Positions 746 through 9,002 of a DNA stretch of 9,002 nt are shown here, piece by piece. How positions within the stretch are numbered: position 1 is the stretch's first letter; every line of letters begins with the position of its first letter. Under the pieces are notes generated by a model. The model saw nothing but the letters and a program-made list of their open reading frames with translations, had not been told where the DNA came from and did not search any database. The DNA lies in the IMG/VR virus record IMGVR_UViG_3300031577_000046; one strand, given 5' to 3'. The stretch comes from a virus. Lineage: Duplodnaviria; Heunggongvirae; Uroviricota; Caudoviricetes. The translations under genes and the position numbers were made by a program.

Positions 746-1240
746 ATGGATCGGGAGTTGAAAAATCTGACGCTGAATATCAGTCAACTGGCGGCACTGT
801 CAGGAGTACATCGCCAGACTGCTGCGGCAAGGCTGCAAAATCTACCCGTTGCAGGGGGGCATGAAAGCAACCTCAAGCTTTATCGGGTGGTTGATATTGT
901 GTCGGCATTTCTGGCATTACCACCGCCGGTTGCAGAAGGCGAAATGGACGCGCATGAGCGCAAAGCCTGGTATCAGTCTGAACGTGAGCGTCTTAAGTTC
1001 GAACAGGAAACGGCACAACTCATTCCGGCCAGTGATGTCAGACGGGAGTTTGCCATCTGGGCAAAAGCGGTCGTGCAGGTGCTGGAGACATTACCGGATA
1101 TTCTGGAACGCGACTGCGGTCTGCAGCCTGCCGCTGTGAGCCGTGTTCAGTCCATTATTGATGATCTGCGCGATCAGATAGCCCTGCGGGTGACCGAAGC
1201 AGGTGCGGATGATGAGGAGGAATTACAGCAGGAGGAGTAA
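746..1240 (+). CDS. nu1: Terminase small subunit, lambda Nu1 family (164 aa)
   Basis: ATG at 746 with GGAG at 737-740 (5-nt spacer). N-terminal HTH-like segment LNISQLAALSGVHRQTAAARLQ and overall resemblance to lambda gpNu1, acidic C-terminus. Sits immediately upstream of and overlapping (TAATG) the large terminase. Confidence 0.85.
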   Translation: MDRELKNLTLNISQLAALSGVHRQTAAARLQNLPVAGGHESNLKLYRVVDIVSAFLALPPPVAEGEMDAHERKAWYQSERERLKFEQETAQLIPASDVRREFAIWAKAVVQVLETLPDILERDCGLQPAAVSRVQSIIDDLRDQIALRVTEAGADDEEELQQEE

Positions 1241-3342
1241 TGCTGAATCAGGAAACCGCAAAGGCAGCACGAACCGATTCAGGTTATATCCTTCGCGCAC
1301 CGAGACGAATGCGGGTTGCTGATGCCGTCGCTCAGTATATGCGGGTACCCATGGGAGCCGGGAACTCAGTCCCGTGGGATCCGCTGGTGGCACCGTATGT
1401 TATTGAACCGATGAACTGTCTGGCCTCGCGTGAATACGACGCAGTGATATTTGTTGGCCCGGCACGAACCGGCAAGACTATCGGCCTGATTGACGGCTGG
1501 GTGATTTACAACGTGATTTGCGATCCTGCGGATATGCTGATCATTCAGATGACGGAGGAAAAAGCCCGCGAACACTCCAAAAAACGACTCGCCAGAACGT
1601 TTCGCGTCAGCCCGGAAGTGGTCAGTCGCCTGAGTCCGAACAAAAATGACAACAACGTTTATGACAGAACATTCCTTACTGGCAACTACCTGAAAATCGG
1701 CTGGCCGTCAGTCAATATCATGTCCTCATCAGATTATAAATGCGTGGCGCTGACGGATTATGATCGTTTCCCGGAAGATATTGATGGTGAGGGGGATGCC
1801 TTCTCTCTTGCCTCAAAACGTACCACCACATTTATGTCCAGTGGTATGACGCTGGTGGAGAGTTCCCCCGGCAGGGATGTGAAGGATGTGAAATGGCGAC
1901 GGACTTCACCACATGAGGCTCCACCAACCACGGGGATCCTGTCGCTCTATAATCGTGGCGATCGCCGTCGCTGGTACTGGCCCTGTCCACACTGTGGTGA
2001 GTATTTTCAGCCCTGCGGCGATGTGGTTGCTGGTTTCCGTGATATTGCCGATCCCGTGCTGGCAAGTGAGGCGGCTTATATTCAGTGTCCTTCCTGTTCC
2101 GGACGGATTATGCCTGAACAAAAACGTGAGCTGAACGGACGTGGGGTCTGGTTGCGGGATGGTGAATCCATCAATGCGGATGGCAGTCGTTATGGTGATC
2201 CCCGACGCTCACGTATTGCGTCATTCTGGATGGAGGGTCCGGCTGCTGCTTACCAGACACTCTCGCAACTCGTTTACAAACTGCTTACTGCAGAACAGGA
2301 ATACGAGACAACCGGAAGTGAAGAAACACTCAAGACGGTTATCAATACCGACTGGGGATTACCTTATCTTCCCCGCGCCAGCATGGAGCAACGAAAAAGT
2401 GAACTGCTTGAGCAGCGGGCAGAGCCAGTTCCTTCCCGCAGTGTGCCGGATGGCGTTAATTTCCTTGTGGCGACAGTGGATGTGCAGGCGGGACGTCATC
2501 GCCGTTTTGTGGTTCAGGTAACGGGCTATGGCAGCCGTGGCGAACGCTGGATTATTGATCGTTACAACATCACGCAGTCATTGCGCGGTGACAGCGACGG
2601 GGAGAGCCAGCGAATTGATCCGGCCAGCTATCCGGAAGACTGGGATGTCCTGCTGACGGATGTTTTTCATAAAAGCTGGCCGCTGGCCTCCGATCCTTCT
2701 CAACAAATGCGACTGATGGCAATGGCGGTGGACTCCGGTGGTGAAGACGGGGTCACTGATAATGCCTATAAATTCTGGCGTCGTTGCCGTCGTGATGGCC
2801 TTGGTAAACGTATTTACCTGTTTAAGGGCGACAGCATCCGGCGCGCAAAACTGATCACCCGTACATTCCCTGATAACACCGGACGAACGGGCCGACGGGC
2901 GCAGGCCGCAGGTGATGTGCCGCTCTGGCTTCTTCAGACGGATGCCCTGAAAGACCGGGTGAATAACGCGTTATGGCGTGACTCGCCAGGTCCCGGCTAT
3001 GTGCATTTCCCTGACTGGCTGGGGAGCTGGTTTTACGACGAACTGACGTATGAAGAGCGTAGCAGTGACGGAAAATGGAGTAAGCCGGGTCGCGGTGCCA
3101 ACGAAGCCTTTGACCTGATGGTGTATGCCGAGGCTCTGGTCATTCTGCATGGATACGAAAAGATCCGCTGGCCGGATGCACCGGAATGGGCGAGCCGGGA
3201 AACCTGGCTGGAGTGTGTCCCGGACAGTACCGAACCGTCACTCTCACCGGAACCGGTATCCACGCCTGTTAAAAAACAAAAACGGAAGAAAACAGTAACT
3301 GACGATGTTAACCCCTGGCTGACTTCCGGAGGATGGTTATGA
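1240..3342 (+). CDS. A: Terminase large subunit, lambda gpA family (700 aa)
   Basis: Walker-A-like VGPARTGKT at aa 72-80 (nt 1453-1479). Motifs CPHCGEYFQPCGD, WIIDRYNI and C-terminal GYVHFPDW...EAFDLMVYAEAL parallel lambda gpA (CPHCGEE, WLIDRQII, GAVHFP...EALDCFVYALAA). Start overlaps the Nu1-like stop. Confidence 0.95.
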   Translation: MLNQETAKAARTDSGYILRAPRRMRVADAVAQYMRVPMGAGNSVPWDPLVAPYVIEPMNCLASREYDAVIFVGPARTGKTIGLIDGWVIYNVICDPADMLIIQMTEEKAREHSKKRLARTFRVSPEVVSRLSPNKNDNNVYDRTFLTGNYLKIGWPSVNIMSSSDYKCVALTDYDRFPEDIDGEGDAFSLASKRTTTFMSSGMTLVESSPGRDVKDVKWRRTSPHEAPPTTGILSLYNRGDRRRWYWPCPHCGEYFQPCGDVVAGFRDIADPVLASEAAYIQCPSCSGRIMPEQKRELNGRGVWLRDGESINADGSRYGDPRRSRIASFWMEGPAAAYQTLSQLVYKLLTAEQEYETTGSEETLKTVINTDWGLPYLPRASMEQRKSELLEQRAEPVPSRSVPDGVNFLVATVDVQAGRHRRFVVQVTGYGSRGERWIIDRYNITQSLRGDSDGESQRIDPASYPEDWDVLLTDVFHKSWPLASDPSQQMRLMAMAVDSGGEDGVTDNAYKFWRRCRRDGLGKRIYLFKGDSIRRAKLITRTFPDNTGRTGRRAQAAGDVPLWLLQTDALKDRVNNALWRDSPGPGYVHFPDWLGSWFYDELTYEERSSDGKWSKPGRGANEAFDLMVYAEALVILHGYEKIRWPDAPEWASRETWLECVPDSTEPSLSPEPVSTPVKKQKRKKTVTDDVNPWLTSGGWL

Positions 3343-3551
3343 ACCAGAATGATATTGAAGCCATGATTCAGCGTTATACGGAAGCTGAAATGGCGGTGCT
3401 GGACGGAAAATCCGTCACCTTTAATGGTCAGCAGATGACCATGGAAAACTTATCTGAGATCCGACAGGGGCGGCAGGAGTGGGAGCGCCGCCTTGCGGCT
3501 CTGATTACACGACGACGGGGGCATCCCGGGTACCGGCTGGCGAGGTTCTGA
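3339..3551 (+). CDS. W: Head-tail joining protein, lambda gpW family (70 aa)
   Basis: Small protein between terminase and portal with a C-terminal RRRGHPG motif like lambda gpW (RRRGPAG). ATG 3339 overlaps the terminase TGA (ATGA, 3339-3342) and has GGAGG at 3328-3332 (6-nt spacer). The ATG at 3333 in the ORF track has no spacer to the SD. Confidence 0.85.
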   Translation: MNQNDIEAMIQRYTEAEMAVLDGKSVTFNGQQMTMENLSEIRQGRQEWERRLAALITRRRGHPGYRLARF

Positions 3552-5059
3552 TGGCAATTCTTGATGATGTGATTGGCGTTTTTTCTCCAGGATGGAAAGC
3601 GGCAAGGCTGCGTTCCCGTGCGGTGATCCAGGCTTATGAGGCCGTAAAAACGACGCGGACACACAAAGCCCGACGGGAGAACCGAACTGCCGACCAGTTA
3701 AGCCAGTACGGGGCCGTGTCGTTACGTGAGCAGGCCCGTTACCTTGATAACAACCACGATCTGGTTATTGGTGTATTTGACAAGCTGGAAGAACGGGTGG
3801 TGGGGAAAAACGGGATTATTGTCGAGCCACATCCGGTATTACGCAATGGGGCCATTGCCCGTGATCTGGCAGCGGAGATACGCACCCGATGGAGTGAATG
3901 GTCTGTCAGTCCGGAAGTCACCGGGCAGTTTACCCGTCCGATGCTGGAACGTCTGATGCTGCGTACCTGGCTGCGCGATGGTGAGGTGTTTGCCCAGATG
4001 GTTTCCGGGCGCATAAACAGCCTGACGCCTTCTGCCGGTGTTCATTTCTGGCTGGAGGCACTCGAGCCAGACTTTATTCCCATGATCAGTGATGAGAGCA
4101 ACAGGCTGAATCAGGGCGTGTTTGTTGATGACTGGGGGCGTCCCGAAAAATATCTGGTGTATAAAAGCCGTCCCGTATCCGGACGGCAGATGGAAACCAA
4201 AGAAGTGGATGCAGAGCGAATGCTGCATCTTAAATTTGTTCGCCGTCTGCACCAGATGCGCGGGACGTCTTTATTGTCCGGTGTACTGATCCGCCTCAGT
4301 GCCCTGAAAGAGTATGAAGATTCTGAGCTGATTGCAGCAAGGATCGCCGCTGCTCTGGGGATGTACATCCGGAAAGGCGACGGGCAGAGCTATGAACCGG
4401 ATGGTAATGGCAGCAAGGAGAATGAACGCGAGCTTACCATTCAGCCAGGCATTATTTACGACGATCTGAAACCCGGCGAAGAAATCGGAATGGTGAAGTC
4501 AGATCGCCCCAATCCTAACCTTGAAACTTTTCGTAATGGTCAGTTGCGTGCCGTGGCGGCGGGCAGTCGTCTGAGTTTTTCCAGTACGGCGCGCAACTAT
4601 AACGGCACTTACAGCGCCCAGCGTCAGGAGCTGGTTGAGTCTACTGATGGCTACCTGATCCTGCAGGACTGGTTTATTGGTGCCGTCACCCGCCCGATGT
4701 ACCGTGCCTGGCTGAAACAGGCTGTGGCATTCGGTGTTATCAGGCTACCCCGCGATCTTGACCGTTCTTCACTGTATACCGCGGTGTATTCCGGACCGGT
4801 GATGCCATGGATTGACCCTGTTAAGGAGGCTGAGGCCTGGAAAATTCAGATTCGTGGTGGAGCGGCGACAGAATCAGACTGGGTACGTGCAGGTGGTCGT
4901 AATCCGGATGATGTCAAACGTCGGCGCAAGGCCGAAATTGATGAAAACCGCAAGCTGGATCTGGTATTTGATACCGATCCGGCCAGTGATAAAGGAGGCA
5001 GCAGTGCCGCAACGAAACGACAGGATCCGCAGCACACCGACGACCAGTCCGAAGAATAA
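3551..5059 (+). CDS. B: Portal protein, lambda gpB family (502 aa)
   Basis: Large protein at the portal position between W and the protease/capsid gene. ATG 3551 overlaps the W stop (TGATG at 3549-3553); the upstream in-frame codons of the track ORF (from 3479) lie inside W. Family call is from size, synteny and a STAR(N/A)... motif, without a search. Confidence 0.85.
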   Translation: MAILDDVIGVFSPGWKAARLRSRAVIQAYEAVKTTRTHKARRENRTADQLSQYGAVSLREQARYLDNNHDLVIGVFDKLEERVVGKNGIIVEPHPVLRNGAIARDLAAEIRTRWSEWSVSPEVTGQFTRPMLERLMLRTWLRDGEVFAQMVSGRINSLTPSAGVHFWLEALEPDFIPMISDESNRLNQGVFVDDWGRPEKYLVYKSRPVSGRQMETKEVDAERMLHLKFVRRLHQMRGTSLLSGVLIRLSALKEYEDSELIAARIAAALGMYIRKGDGQSYEPDGNGSKENERELTIQPGIIYDDLKPGEEIGMVKSDRPNPNLETFRNGQLRAVAAGSRLSFSSTARNYNGTYSAQRQELVESTDGYLILQDWFIGAVTRPMYRAWLKQAVAFGVIRLPRDLDRSSLYTAVYSGPVMPWIDPVKEAEAWKIQIRGGAATESDWVRAGGRNPDDVKRRRKAEIDENRKLDLVFDTDPASDKGGSSAATKRQDPQHTDDQSEE

Positions 5060-5072
5060 TTCCTGGTTCAGG

Positions 5073-7031
5073 ATGCAGGCTGGTCACCAGAGTGACGCGG
5101 ATATTTATATTTATGACGAGATTGGTTTCTGGGGTGTTACGGCGAAGCAGTTTATCAGTGATCTGAATGCACTGGGCGATATCACCCACATTAATCTCCA
5201 TATCAATTCACCGGGTGGCGATGTCTTTGAAGGCATCGCCATTTTTAATGCGCTGAAAACACATAGTGCGTCCATTACCGTTTATGTCGACGGTGTGGCG
5301 GCATCAATGGCGTCGGTCATTGCGATGGTGGGAAACCCGGTCATTATGCCGGAAAACACCTTCATGATGATTCATAAACCATTTGGCTTTACGGGCGGTG
5401 ATGCGGAGGACATGCGCACCTATGCCGACCTGCTCGATAAAGTTGAGGCGGTTCTGTTACCCGCTTATGCACAGAAAACCGGGAAAACCACCGATGAAAT
5501 TGCTGCCATGCTGGCGGATGAGACCTGGATGTCCGGTGCCGAATGTCTGGCACATGGATTTGCTGATCAGGTGACGCCAGCCGTTAAGGCAATGGCATGT
5601 ATTCAGTCAAAACGTACAGAGGAATTTAAAAAGATGCCGGAATCCATTCGAAACATGATTACTCCGCCACGCAACAGTGCTCCACGCGTACAGGATGATG
5701 AACCTGCTGCCTCCCGGACACCAGTGCAGGCAGCAGCACCAGTGGTGGATGAAAACAGCATCCGTGTGCAGGTACTGGCAGAGCAAAAAGCGCGTGTAAA
5801 CGGTATTAATGATCTGTTTGCCATGTTTGGCGGGCGTTATCAGACGCTGCAGGCTCAGTGCCTTGCCGATCCTGAATGTTCGCTGGAGCAGGCCCGCGAA
5901 AAGCTGTTGAACGAGATGGGGCGCGAGTCCACGCCATCCAATAAAAATACCCAGGCTCATATTTATGCCGGGAACGGTAATTTTGTTGGGGACGGGATCC
6001 GCCAGGCGCTGATGTCGCGTGCCGGATTTGAAAAAACCGAACGTGATAATGTCTACAACGGAATGACCCTGCGTGAATATGCCCGTATGTCACTGACTGA
6101 ACGGGGTATTGTGGTTTCCAGTTATAACCCGATGCAGATGGTCGGTGCGGCGTTCACACACAGTACGTCTGACTTCGGTAATATTCTGCTGGATGTTGCG
6201 AACAAAGCCATTCTGCAGGGTTGGGAATATGCCCCTGAAACCTACGAACAGTGGACGCGGAAAGGTCAGTTGTCTGATTTTAAAATTGCCCATCGTGTGG
6301 GTATGGGGGGCTTCAGTGCTCTGCGTCAGGTGCGTGAAGGGGCGGAATATAAATACGTCACCACCGGAGATAAACAGGCCACTATTGCACTGGCGACCTA
6401 TGGCGAACTGTTCAGTATCACCCGTCAGGCCATTATCAACGATGATCTGAATATGCTGACCGATGTCCCGATGAAACTGGGTCGTGCGGCGAAATCCACT
6501 ATTGCCGATCTGGTTTATGCCATTCTGACGTCTAACCCGAAGATCTCCACAGATAATGTAAGCCTGTTCGATAAAGCGAAACATGCAAACGTACTGGAGA
6601 GCGCAGCAATGGACGTGGCATCGCTGGATAAAGCCCGCCAGTTGATGCGTGTTCAGAAAGAGGGTGAGCGTCATCTGAATATTCGTCCTGCGTTCGTACT
6701 GGTACCGACGGCGATGGAGTCTGTTGCTAACCAGGTCATTCGCTCCTCAAGTGTCAAGGGGGCTGACATTAACGCCGGTATTATTAACCCGGTGAAAGAT
6801 TTTGCGACCGTTATTGCAGAGCCTCGTCTTGATGATAACAGCCAGACCACCTTTTATCTGGCTGCGTCCAAAGGCTCCGATACGATTGAAGTGGCTTATC
6901 TCAACGGTGTGGATACGCCATATATTGATCAGATGGAGGGCTTCAGTGTGGATGGCGTGACAACTAAAGTGCGTATTGACGCCGGTGTTGCGCCAGTTGA
7001 TCACCGCGGTCTGGTGAAATGTACGGCGTAA
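5073..7031 (+). CDS. Tripartite head gene: ClpP-like (S14) prohead protease, scaffold-like linker and HK97-fold major capsid protein in one 652-aa ORF (Gifsy-2-type)
   Basis: ClpP catalytic motifs are present: GVAASMAS (Ser78, nt 5304-5306) and MMIHKPFG (His101, nt 5373-5375), matching E. coli ClpP AASMG / MIHQPLGG. A Pro/Ala-rich linker follows (~5655-5750), then a predicted helical segment, then ~350 aa of capsid-like sequence to the stop at 7029-7031. Start is ambiguous: ATG 5073 (weak SD, 14 nt after portal stop) or in-frame GTG 5004 with AAGGAGG at 4992-4998. Confidence 0.85.
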   Translation: MQAGHQSDADIYIYDEIGFWGVTAKQFISDLNALGDITHINLHINSPGGDVFEGIAIFNALKTHSASITVYVDGVAASMASVIAMVGNPVIMPENTFMMIHKPFGFTGGDAEDMRTYADLLDKVEAVLLPAYAQKTGKTTDEIAAMLADETWMSGAECLAHGFADQVTPAVKAMACIQSKRTEEFKKMPESIRNMITPPRNSAPRVQDDEPAASRTPVQAAAPVVDENSIRVQVLAEQKARVNGINDLFAMFGGRYQTLQAQCLADPECSLEQAREKLLNEMGRESTPSNKNTQAHIYAGNGNFVGDGIRQALMSRAGFEKTERDNVYNGMTLREYARMSLTERGIVVSSYNPMQMVGAAFTHSTSDFGNILLDVANKAILQGWEYAPETYEQWTRKGQLSDFKIAHRVGMGGFSALRQVREGAEYKYVTTGDKQATIALATYGELFSITRQAIINDDLNMLTDVPMKLGRAAKSTIADLVYAILTSNPKISTDNVSLFDKAKHANVLESAAMDVASLDKARQLMRVQKEGERHLNIRPAFVLVPTAMESVANQVIRSSSVKGADINAGIINPVKDFATVIAEPRLDDNSQTTFYLAASKGSDTIEVAYLNGVDTPYIDQMEGFSVDGVTTKVRIDAGVAPVDHRGLVKCTA

Positions 7032-7054: not shown

Positions 7055-7074
7055 GGCCCGTAAGGGCTTTTTTT
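7055..7074 (+). terminator. Candidate intrinsic terminator / mRNA-stabilising hairpin after the capsid gene
   Basis: Stem G7056CCC / GGGC7067 closed by GNRA tetraloop GTAA (7060-7063), followed by a run of seven T (7068-7074), 25 nt after the capsid stop. The stem is only 4-5 bp, so it is probably weak or leaky. Confidence 0.45.
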
Positions 7075-7720: not shown

Positions 7721-8299
7721 ATGAAGGGGCTTGAGAACGCCATCCGCAATCTGAACAGCCTTGATACCCGTATGGTACCGCAGGCCAGCGCATGGACGAT
7801 AAACCGTGTGGCACAGAAAGCGGTCTCGGTTGCCACGCATCAGGTCGCGCAGAATACCGTGGCGGGAGATAACCAGGTGAAGGGGATCCCTTTTCGGATT
7901 GTAAAAGAACGTGTCCGGGTACTGAAAGCCACCCCGACAGGAAAAATGTATGCTCGAATTCGCATTAACCGGGGCAACCTGCCCGCCATTAAGCTGGGGA
8001 CGGCCCGGGTCAGACTGGCCCGGCGTGGTGGAAAACTGCGGTACCGTGGCAGTGTGCTGAAGGTGGGTAAATATCTTTTCCGGGATGCGTTTATTCAACA
8101 ACTGGCGAATGGTCGCTGGCATGTGATGCGGCGTATTGACGGCAAAAATCGTTACCCCATTGATGTGGTGAACATCCCGATGGCCGGACCGCTGACACAG
8201 GCATTTGAAGATGCCCGCGACCGCATCATTGCTGCGGAGATGCCGAAACAGCTGGGGTATGCACTGAAACAACAACTGAGGTTATGGCTGACCCGATGA
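7721..8299 (+). CDS. Z: Tail completion protein, lambda gpZ family (192 aa)
   Basis: Same length as lambda gpZ, with near-identical blocks: FIQQLANGRWHVMRRIDGKNRYPIDVVNIPMAGPLTQAF versus lambda FIQQLKNGRWHVMQRVAGKNRYPIDVVKIPMAVPLTTAF (from memory). GAGG at 7711-7714, 6-nt spacer. Confidence 0.9.
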   Translation: MKGLENAIRNLNSLDTRMVPQASAWTINRVAQKAVSVATHQVAQNTVAGDNQVKGIPFRIVKERVRVLKATPTGKMYARIRINRGNLPAIKLGTARVRLARRGGKLRYRGSVLKVGKYLFRDAFIQQLANGRWHVMRRIDGKNRYPIDVVNIPMAGPLTQAFEDARDRIIAAEMPKQLGYALKQQLRLWLTR

Positions 8300-8697
8300 A
8301 CCGACATACACAAATCCGCCAGGTCGTACTGGCACGCCTTCGGGAACAGTGTGGAGACGGCGCCACGTTTTTTGACGGGCTTCCGGCATTTGTTGATGCG
8401 CAGGAACTGCCCGCCGTGGCGGTGTGGCTGAGTGATGCACAGTACACCGGAAAAATGACGGATGAAGATGACTGGCAGGCTGTTCTGCATATTGCCGTCT
8501 TCATCCGGGCACAGGCACCGGATTCAGAGCTGGATATGTGGATGGAGAGCACCATTGTCCCGGCCCTGAATGATATACCGGCACTTTCCGGACTCATCGA
8601 CACCCTGAGCCCACTCGGTTTTAACTATCAACGTGATAATGAGATGGCCACCTGGGCGATGGCGGAAATCACGTACCAGATCACGTACACGAATTAA
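8296..8697 (+). CDS. U: Tail terminator protein, lambda gpU family (133 aa)
   Basis: [12 protein letters not shown]...GATFFDG...[14 protein letters not shown]...[11 protein letters not shown]...DIPALSGLI closely parallels lambda gpU (MKHTELRAAVL...GATFFDG...PAVAVYLTGAEYTG...PDSELDAWMES). ATG 8296 overlaps the Z stop (ATGA, 8296-8299). The in-frame ATG at 8284 is possible but the homolog alignment favours 8296. Confidence 0.9.
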
Positions 8698-8707
8698 GGA
8701 GGTGGCA

Positions 8708-9002
8708 ATGACCACACCAAATCCACGGGCAAAAACGAAAGGTGCGGGGACGACGTTCTGGATGTATACCGGCAACGGCGACGCATTTGCGAACCCTTTA
8801 TCGGACACTGACTGGCTGCGTCTTGCGATGGTGAAGGATCTGCAACCTGGCGAAATGACCGCTGATGCAGAAGATGACACTTATCTCGATGATGAAGATG
8901 CAGACTGGAAAACGACAACTCAGGGGCAGAAATCCGTCGGTGATACTTCGGCGACGCTGGCCTGGCATCCGGTAAGAAAAAAACACGCGACCCCCGTAAT
9001 GA
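8708..9002 (+). CDS. V: Major tail protein, lambda gpV family; first 98 codons only, gene continues past the right edge
   Basis: AAGGAGG at 8696-8702, 5-nt spacer, ATG 8708. Translation [45 protein letters not shown]...YLDDEDADW matches lambda gpV ([41 protein letters not shown]...YLDDEDADW). No stop before the window end. Confidence 0.9.

Follow-up and report, generated by a model that had tools for sequence, protein, structure and literature searches.

The fused gene for a ClpP-like prohead protease, a scaffold linker and a major capsid protein is, judging from comparison of related loci, very probably translated from the GTG at position 5004, with the ATG at 5073 as the codon of an internal methionine. 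The two codons are in frame and 23 codons apart, and a GTG start adds the peptide VPQRNDRIRSTPTTSPKNNSWFR. In the window, i.e. the whole stretch of 9,002 nucleotides that was analysed, the following features describe this junction:

3551..5059, + strand: portal gene, lambda-family (PF05136, 274.7 bits; list of open reading frames; annotated equivalents)
4991..4998, + strand: predicted Shine-Dalgarno (SD) sequence AAAGGAGG for the protease-capsid gene, inside the portal codons Lys-Gly-Gly (pairing energy, conservation)
5004..5006, + strand: GTG, most probable start of translation for the protease/scaffold/capsid fusion (SD, conservation, RefSeq CDS start)
5004..5059, + strand: 56-nt overlap of the two genes, encoding the portal C-terminal tail SAATKRQDPQHTDDQSEE plus protease residues 1-18
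5004..7031, + strand: fusion gene of 675 codons and a stop, for ClpP-like prohead protease, scaffold linker and major capsid protein (NF045540, PF00574, PF25209)
5057..5059, + strand: portal stop codon TAA (sequence, list of open reading frames, translation)
5061..5072, + strand: codons Ser-Trp-Phe-Arg, coding and no intergenic spacer (Trp conservation, codon-position pattern)
5073..5075, + strand: ATG, probable codon of internal Met24 in the first beta strand (pairing energy, homolog residues, AF2 model)
7055..7074, + strand: terminator-like hairpin and T-run, 3' of the fusion gene

An earlier sequence-only reading of this DNA had presented the GTG and the ATG as two competing starts. The GTG stands as a candidate, but the match is not an even one, as the GTG is strongly favoured by its SD and by the N-termini of homologs. 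That reading had the SD possibly driving a longer isoform; instead the GTG appears to be the gene's own start. Its coordinates for AAGGAGG, GTG 5004, the portal stop, ATG 5073 and the 23-residue extension were all correct when checked against the sequence, and its gene identities agree with our searches (a PF05136 portal followed by a ClpP-like protease/major capsid fusion with PF00574, PF25209 and NF045540).

We propose that AAAGGAGG at 4991-4998, 5 nt upstream, would drive initiation at GTG 5004, and that the portal C-terminal tail and the first ~18 protease residues would share one DNA in different frames, both appearing loosely constrained. The conserved protease fold would then open with Asn-Ser-Trp-Phe-Arg-Met, ATG 5073 encoding Met24 of the first beta strand. 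We infer that ribosomes actually initiate at 5004 and that this is the only significant start.

Shine-Dalgarno sequence and start codon

The motif AAGGAGG at 4992-4998, which the A just before it extends to AAAGGAGG from 4991, is complementary to the 3' end of 16S rRNA and is separated from GTG 5004-5006 by the 5-nt spacer CAGCA, within the 4-9 nt found before canonical starts. The predicted anti-SD pairing energy of GTG 5004 was -11.6 kcal/mol, a value reached by 2 of the 546 ATG/GTG/TTG triplets on the + strand of the window, the other being ATG 8708 after the stop of the open reading frame 8284-8697. The window holds three copies of AAGGAGG versus 0.88 expected, and at least three were found in 11 of 200 shuffles; the count by itself is weak evidence, and the case for the GTG start is carried by conservation and not by the motif.

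AAAGGAGG was identical in 10 Enterobacteriaceae relatives, portal third-codon (synonymous) positions included, and the start that follows it was GTG in nine of them and ATG in one. In contrast, the control copy of AAGGAGG at 4823-4829, inside the portal gene and with no start codon downstream of it, was not conserved, and its synonymous sites vary freely among relatives. Measured against this control, the SD and start in the 10 relatives are conserved beyond the needs of the upstream coding frame. Across the Enterobacteriaceae loci L009-L023 and L079 the GTG is kept 19-21 codons upstream of a Trp codon. Locus L005 has ATG in place of the GTG (dG -16.1), and in L025 and L032 an ATG stands 24 and 22 codons ahead of the Trp, respectively, preceded by an SD of equal strength.

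Codons between the portal stop and the ATG

Thirteen nucleotides (5060-5072) lie between the portal stop and ATG 5073-5075, the A of the ATG being the 14th base past the stop. They include the Trp codon at 5064-5066, which is W21 in GTG numbering. W21 was invariant, down to 46% identity, in an unfiltered alignment of 23 homolog proteins. The Trp was also found in 79 of 80 loci (one locus per species), but the first motif filter for these loci demanded Trp and the count is therefore circular, so that "invariant" rests on the unfiltered 23-protein alignment. Hand inspection of the four loci not matched by the filter revealed the Trp in three; it was absent from L085, a distant Verrucomicrobiota locus.

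The sequence-only reading had also named homologs that start at MQAGHQSD, with the upstream codons unconserved, as evidence against its proposal. The opposite was seen: homologs conserve NSWFR directly upstream of the Met, and many have no Met there. Homologs with a short N-terminus begin MNHWYTIKA, MKQSWYSIKA, MRKSWYEIKA or MRRNWYDIKA, with the Trp 2-4 residues in and Ile in place of Met24; in some loci a stop lies just upstream and the sole ATG is 2-5 codons ahead of the Trp. Matches to PHROG profiles and in tblastn reach back to residues 16-22: profile matches start upstream of Met24, with phrog_13984 beginning exactly at the GTG, and the alignments to Fels-1, Vibrio, Staphylococcus and Mycobacterium phages begin at query residues 20-22.

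In the codons for S-W-F-R-M, differences at protease-frame positions 1/2/3 numbered 32/0/82 among 12 relatives, and in the 13 nt from portal stop to ATG the protease-frame changes were synonymous only. On this comparative evidence, the protease-frame periodicity within the supposed spacer 5061-5072 shows the stretch to be translated. It is consequently extremely unlikely that ATG 5073 is the sole real start and the upstream SD and GTG a by-product of portal coding. Such a start is used in three GenBank phage records, and the Pfam and NCBIfam profiles (the latter NF045540 and NF045542) do not separate the two candidates, since all of them start beyond Met24 and give the two versions equal scores. 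However, the invariant Trp and the purely synonymous variation speak for translation ahead of the ATG, many homologs are unable to start at the equivalent position, and the SD, unlike the control motif, does not vary at portal synonymous sites.

The ATG at 5073

Translation from GTG 5004 makes Met24 an internal residue, and its codon lacks the marks of a start. An AGG stands immediately 5' of ATG 5073 at zero spacing, leaving no usable SD; the predicted anti-SD energy of -2.7 was equalled or bettered by 63% of the 546 start triplets. This AGG (Arg) is not conserved, being replaced by CGC or CGT in relatives.

In the 79 loci with the Trp, the residue matching Met24 (W+3) was M in 43, I in 26, L in nine and V in one. 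None of the 36 non-Met loci had a start codon at this position, which therefore cannot be a start there. In the AF2 model, strand 23-26 pairs with strand 31-36, and a mixture of Met, Ile, Leu and Val would be expected of a buried position in a beta strand.

Both starts might still be used, the GTG for the full precursor and ATG 5073 for an isoform shorter by 23 residues, made by reinitiation after the portal stop or by leaky internal initiation. The short distance from the portal stop would suit this, as would the Met in 43 of 79 loci, including every locus passing the motif filter at >60% identity to the query, and the nested in-frame products C and Nu3 of the lambda head module. We nevertheless consider it very unlikely given the missing SD, the replaceable AGG, the 36 loci without a start codon and the fit to a buried strand position. 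The product would moreover lack the invariant Trp21 as well as Phe22, and a predicted hairpin at 5061-5073 takes in the AGG together with the first base of the ATG. A nested second start of the lambda C/Nu3 type has its own conserved ribosome-binding site, and we found none at ATG 5073. The suggestion of reinitiation at the ATG after portal translation was accordingly left unsupported, and we found no evidence for a second isoform.

The same hairpin (TCCTG-GTT-CAGGA) was considered as a regulatory element and rejected; it is unconserved, relatives reading TCGTGGTTCCGCATG.

Two reading frames in the overlap

The portal frame is open from GTG 3479, and in mEp460, Ayreon and RefSeq the portal start is the ATG at 3551. 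GTG 5004 lies 56 nt inside the portal gene, the SD and GTG both falling within the last 22 portal codons. Among 12 relatives, differences at protease-frame positions 1/2/3 were 183/1104/242 in the portal-only region, a portal-frame periodicity, and 284/314/1347 in the protease-only region. In the overlap, portal third-position differences amounted to 222, below the minimum of 307 in 258 equal-sized portal-only windows, and protease third-position differences to 259 versus a median of 378.5. First plus second position differences were above every background window in both frames. Suppressed third positions together with elevated first and second positions are the signature expected of two frames that are both read. 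The overlap thus carries the mark of selection on a second frame on approximate statistics, the sliding windows overlapping each other and the sequences being phylogenetically related, so that these values are indicative and not formal tests. The suppression at portal synonymous sites could partly come from RNA-level constraint.

The N-terminal tail reads RPKAS-K-NSWF in relatives and has a charge of +4/-1 in the window. Conservation is poor over residues 2-14 of the extension, which are also predicted to be disordered, AF2 pLDDT being below 50 for protease residues 1-14. That residues 2-14 are translated is indicated mainly by the substitution pattern, together with the conserved SD and start codon.

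These data also bear on a start upstream of SWF other than GTG 5004, such as GTG 4986, TTG 4968 or a non-canonical codon like ATC 5025. The frame is open back to 4812, and in the Sakai lineage RefSeq chose an additional ATG located 5 codons ahead of the Trp. Such a start is highly improbable, however, as the substitution pattern upstream of the SD is that of the portal frame only, the SDs of GTG 4986 and TTG 4968 are weak (-1.7 and -4.4) and relatives do not keep either codon as a start, and there is no ATG, GTG or TTG between 5007 and 5072 in the window.

The overlap itself might be functional. It might couple precursor synthesis to portal translation, with ribosomes opening the SD/GTG region, and provide the precursor with a basic disordered tail that maybe binds the acidic portal C-terminal tail or nucleic acid in procapsid nucleation; a minor isoform from the ATG, without the Trp, might then modulate the protease. 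We regard this as quite improbable.

The fusion protein

The product combines an N-terminal ClpP-related head maturation protease domain and a C-terminal HK97-type capsid domain in one polypeptide. NF045540 matched with 979.6 bits (curated cut-off 475) over profile positions 2-651 of 652, NF045542 with 216.8 bits (cut-off 120), PF00574 at residues 31-191 with 126.9 bits (cut-off 20.2) and PF25209 at residues 378-672 with 186.7 bits (cut-off 27). S101 in an AASM motif and H124 in a MIH-x-P motif (GTG numbering) were invariant in the 23 homologs and lie inside the stretch aligning to ClpP 1y7o. As in ClpP, they would be the catalytic Ser and His of a putative S14 serine protease. A sequence search of the PDB returned cellular ClpP only, with alignments from residue 34 or later, and gave no structural guide to the N-terminus.

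Internal starts for a Nu3-like scaffold-only or capsid-only product were sought. The sole ATG with a strong SD, at 5412 (dG -10.1), falls midway through the protease domain, and ATG 5634 (MPESIRNM) at the end of that domain has a weak SD (-6.0); neither was taken as such a start. The annotations of mEp460 and Ayreon place a rho-independent terminator behind the equivalent gene.

Comparison with known phages and annotation

The RefSeq fusion protein (NF045540) of the mEp460/cdtI-type lambdoid prophages of E. coli is the same gene, with no biological difference. Phages mEp460, cdtI and Ayreon match the junction at 98-99% identity, and it was found by megablast in 2055 of 5426 complete E. coli genomes, mostly at at least 95% identity. 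In Salmonella phage Gifsy-2, the gene directly following a lambda-type portal gene reportedly encodes, as here, a ClpP-like protease, a scaffold linker and an HK97-fold capsid protein all in one. The Fels-1 gene STM0912.1n shares this architecture, with all three parts in one gene right after a lambda-type portal gene and 62.5% identity in the protease domain. Its annotated start is 83 nt inside the portal gene, and a basic N-terminal tail precedes SWYTI. The Salmonella proteins differ in having Ile at the Met24 position, and hence no competing ATG, and in the length and sequence of the tail. For Gifsy-2, "tripartite capsid gene" is the wording of the title of Effantin et al. (2010, Virology 402:355; reference 20 in PMC8538268).

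Phage lambda shares the gene order of terminase, W, portal and protease/scaffold, and its protease gene likewise begins inside the portal 3' end, with a 20-nt overlap of B and C. In contrast to the gene described here, lambda C belongs to the S49 peptidases rather than to the ClpP-like ones (S14) and is separate from the capsid protein E; lambda also has a real nested in-frame product, Nu3, whereas ATG 5073 is without any marks of a second start. A long overlap of portal and protease genes is normal in this lineage, with 83 nt in Fels-1 and 20 nt in lambda B/C, and GTG 5004 is an ordinary overlapping start like that of lambda B/C.

RefSeq likewise begins the CDS at this GTG, so that 56 nt overlap the portal gene, an agreement that partly reflects gene-caller logic (longest open reading frame plus SD) and not experiment. 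In annotation, the choice between the two starts is in this way already made. The exact 675-aa product is present in a public cluster of 8230 proteins from which the 652-aa ATG version is absent. In the three older GenBank phage records that were checked (mEp460, Ayreon and VT1-Sakai) the gene begins at the ATG, and these records are probably 23 codons short. Our literature searches returned no paper on the start site of the protease-capsid fusion gene.

The arrangement brings no new biology, ribosome-binding sites in the 3' end of the upstream gene being routine in phage head operons. Its main value is in annotation hygiene, as an ATG start strips the conserved N-terminal Trp of this family, and for expression of the precursor in capsid-assembly or nanocage work the gene should be cloned from the GTG.

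Gene layout and start signals at the portal/protease junction

The window is a head-morphogenesis module of an mEp460/cdtI-type lambdoid E. coli phage, with the following genes:

746-1240, small terminase
1240-3342, large terminase
3333-3551, gpW-like protein
ending at 5059, + strand, lambda-family portal
after the portal, 2 kb, + strand, ClpP-like protease, linker and HK97-type capsid protein in one fused gene

Around the portal/protease junction (4700-5400), identity to mEp460, cdtI, Ayreon and others is 98-99%; of 5426 complete E. coli genomes, 2055 gave a megablast match to positions 4900-5200. Other operon genes in the window (3333-3551) likewise overlap or adjoin: the first 10 nt of the gpW-like gene lie within the large terminase gene (3333 vs 3342), and the portal ATG at 3551 has one base in common with the gpW stop. 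Because the open portal frame extends as far upstream as GTG 3479, the portal start is formally ambiguous too.

For the fused gene, the sequence-only reading had described two competing starts, and its coordinates were all correct when re-read from the window sequence and translations. AAGGAGG (4992-4998) is followed by a 5-nt spacer and GTG 5004; the portal TAA occupies 5057-5059, and 13 nt onward lies ATG 5073, in frame with the GTG and 23 codons further downstream. Predicted pairing of the Shine-Dalgarno (SD) sequence with the 16S 3' end was -11.6 kcal/mol for GTG 5004, a value reached by one other among 546 start-like triplets on the strand (ATG 8708, beyond the end of the preceding ORF). 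ATG 5073 had a value of -2.7, equalled or beaten by 63% of these triplets. The number of AAGGAGG copies in the window (3 vs 0.88 expected; 3 reached in 11 of 200 shuffles) is by itself unimpressive evidence. At 4991-4998, AAAGGAGG is unchanged in 10 relatives, portal synonymous sites included.

Within the portal gene, a further perfect AAGGAGG (4823-4829; Lys-Glu-Ala codons), without a start codon downstream, served as control and varies in relatives (AAGGAAG, AAAGAAG, AAAGAGG); since it is not conserved, it is probably fortuitous. The strongest SD of the window, AAGGAGGTGG (8695-8710, dG -16.6), overlaps the stop of ORF 8284-8697 ahead of ATG 8708 and seems to mark tight coupling of two genes further down the operon. 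Two internal in-frame ATGs, possible starts of a Nu3-like scaffold/capsid-only product, also carry SD-like signals: 5412 in the middle of the protease domain (window 5395-5414; SD-like GGAGGAC, dG -10.1), and 5634 at the domain end (Met-Pro-Glu-Ser-Ile-Arg-Asn-Met; dG -6.0), where Met-Pro is conserved in most homologs.

Homologous proteins and predicted fold

Matches of PHROG head-maturation protease profiles to the translated frame begin 9 (phrog_133) and 28 residues (phrog_94) ahead of ATG 5073, and exactly at GTG 5004 (phrog_13984). A database search found homologs in Citrobacter, Klebsiella, Morganella, Providencia, Salmonella, Pasteurella, Vibrio, Shewanella, Pseudomonas and metagenomes, with the N-terminal motif (Lys/Arg)-x-Trp-(Phe/Tyr)-x-(Ile/Met)-(Lys/Gln)-Ala ... 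Ala-Glu-Ile-x-Ile-Tyr-Asp-Glu-Ile-Gly. Several start 2-4 residues ahead of the Trp (MNHWYTIKA, MKQSWYSIKA, MRKSWYEIKA, MRRNWYDIKA) and have Ile at the Met position of the window. This Trp21 (numbered from GTG 5004; codon 5064-5066, between the portal stop and ATG 5073) was invariant down to 46% identity in a 23-sequence alignment, and tblastn alignments with Fels-1, Vibrio, Staphylococcus and Mycobacterium phages start at query residues 20-22.

In an AlphaFold2 model built from the homolog alignment (mean pLDDT 84.9), residues 1-14 were of low confidence and are probably disordered. The first modelled beta strand (residues 23-26, Arg-Met-Gln-Ala) pairs with 31-36, and Met24 is therefore predicted to lie within the protein fold.

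Comparison across loci and codon-position pattern

Among 80 homologous loci, one genome per species, the Trp was found in 79, the exception being L085, a distant Verrucomicrobiota MAG. In these 79 the Met24-equivalent residue is M in 43, I in 26, L in 9 and V in 1. The alternative that homologs begin at the ATG-equivalent Met is contradicted by the conserved Trp upstream of it and by the non-Met loci, 36 of 36 of which have no start codon at that position. In some loci a stop codon lies immediately upstream, leaving an ATG 2-5 codons ahead of the Trp as the sole one. Among the Enterobacteriaceae, loci L009-L023 and L079 (74-78% protein identity; Enterobacter, Yokenella, Phytobacter, Kosakonia, Buttiauxella, Ewingella, Klebsiella and others) have a GTG 19-21 codons before the Trp, preceded in most by AAGGAGG (-11.6) and in three by a weaker SD (-7.9 to -8.7). 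ATG replaces GTG, with a stronger SD (-16.1), in the E. coli variant L005. Locus L025 has an ATG 24 codons ahead of the Trp (SD -11.6), and L032 has one 22 codons ahead (SD -12.5).

Three loci (L007, L011, L080) are contigs from MAGs labelled Bacillota, Geobacteraceae and Geobacter that bear this enterobacterial-type prophage module, L007 being 98% identical to E. coli sequence, which suggests mis-binned or contaminant contigs.

The most direct test of the start is the distribution of differences over protease-frame codon positions 1/2/3 in 12 relatives that share the same geometry. Counts upstream of the SD were 183/1104/242, which is pure portal-frame periodicity because protease-frame position 2 is the portal third position; inside the protease domain they were 284/314/1347. 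Across the supposed 13-nt spacer, the five codons Ser-Trp-Phe-Arg-Met gave 32/0/82, with all changes synonymous in the protease frame. One of these, Arg AGG to CGC/CGT, removes in relatives the AGG adjoining ATG 5073 that had been proposed as a weak SD. Among the 17 codons that overlap fully, third positions of the portal frame showed 222 pairwise differences, below all 258 equal-sized portal windows (minimum 307, median 407.5), protease third positions showed 259 (median 378.5), and differences summed over positions 1 and 2 exceeded every background window in both frames; this is as would be expected for two weakly constrained tails that are both translated, and with overlapping windows and related sequences it is supportive rather than a formal test.

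The tails encoded by the overlap are oppositely charged in the window, the portal C-terminus being acidic (…QHTDDQSEE) and the protease N-terminus basic, strongly so in relatives L009-L020 (PKPKNRARHRPKASAK). Both frames conserve a PKAS/ESQ segment (overlap 5004-5059 and L009-L020). These features could have arisen as a by-product of dual coding, or the two tails could be functionally paired.

Annotation of the start in public records

In the two window-type genomes inspected, the RefSeq CDS starts at the GTG, 56 nt inside the portal gene, whereas the GenBank records of mEp460, Ayreon and VT1-Sakai start at the ATG, so the question raised by the sequence-only reading reflects a real discrepancy between databases. 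The exact 675-aa GTG product is public, in a cluster of 8230 members (675 aa in 15 of 15 members listed); the public protein collection searched did not contain the 652-aa ATG version. Comparative evidence shows the predicted RefSeq start to be right.

In the Sakai lineage (85% identical; L002 2730-2800 and L006 2349-2365, corresponding to window 5004-5075) AAAGGAGG and GTG are fully conserved. The RefSeq start there is nonetheless an ATG peculiar to this lineage, 5 codons ahead of the Trp (MKNKSWFRM); it shares bases with the portal stop (ATGAAGAATAA) and lacks an SD (dG -0.1). As this differs from both other starts, three are annotated for the same gene across databases and lineages. The VT1-Sakai fusion gene is broken by an IS629 insertion (L002 3650-4959), and because of this the prophage copy is probably unable to make heads; its annotated 'scaffolding protein' is a truncated protease fragment with the capsid part cut off.

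Start assignment

Translation almost certainly begins somewhere upstream of ATG 5073, and very probably at GTG 5004 specifically. The GTG thus stands as the start of the gene; the suggestion that it yields a longer isoform does not hold, given the conserved Trp and the homologs that lack Met at the ATG position. A short isoform from ATG 5073 is unlikely, with nothing to favour it: this ATG has no SD, is not conserved in position as a start, is covered by a small, non-conserved hairpin and would give a product without the invariant Trp. Initiation at GTG 5004 would be of an ordinary type, directed by an SD within the 3' end of the upstream portal gene, and ribosomes translating the portal would traverse the SD/GTG region and may help to keep it unfolded. 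Portal and protease genes are joined in the same way in phage lambda, where C starts at 4418 and B ends at 4437, giving 20 nt of overlap; in the Salmonella phage Fels-1 the overlap is 83 nt, with a basic tail ahead of SWYTI. The GTG start is already the current RefSeq annotation and the gene arrangement is routine; in practical terms, the older phage records checked (mEp460, Ayreon, VT1-Sakai) appear to be 23 codons short.
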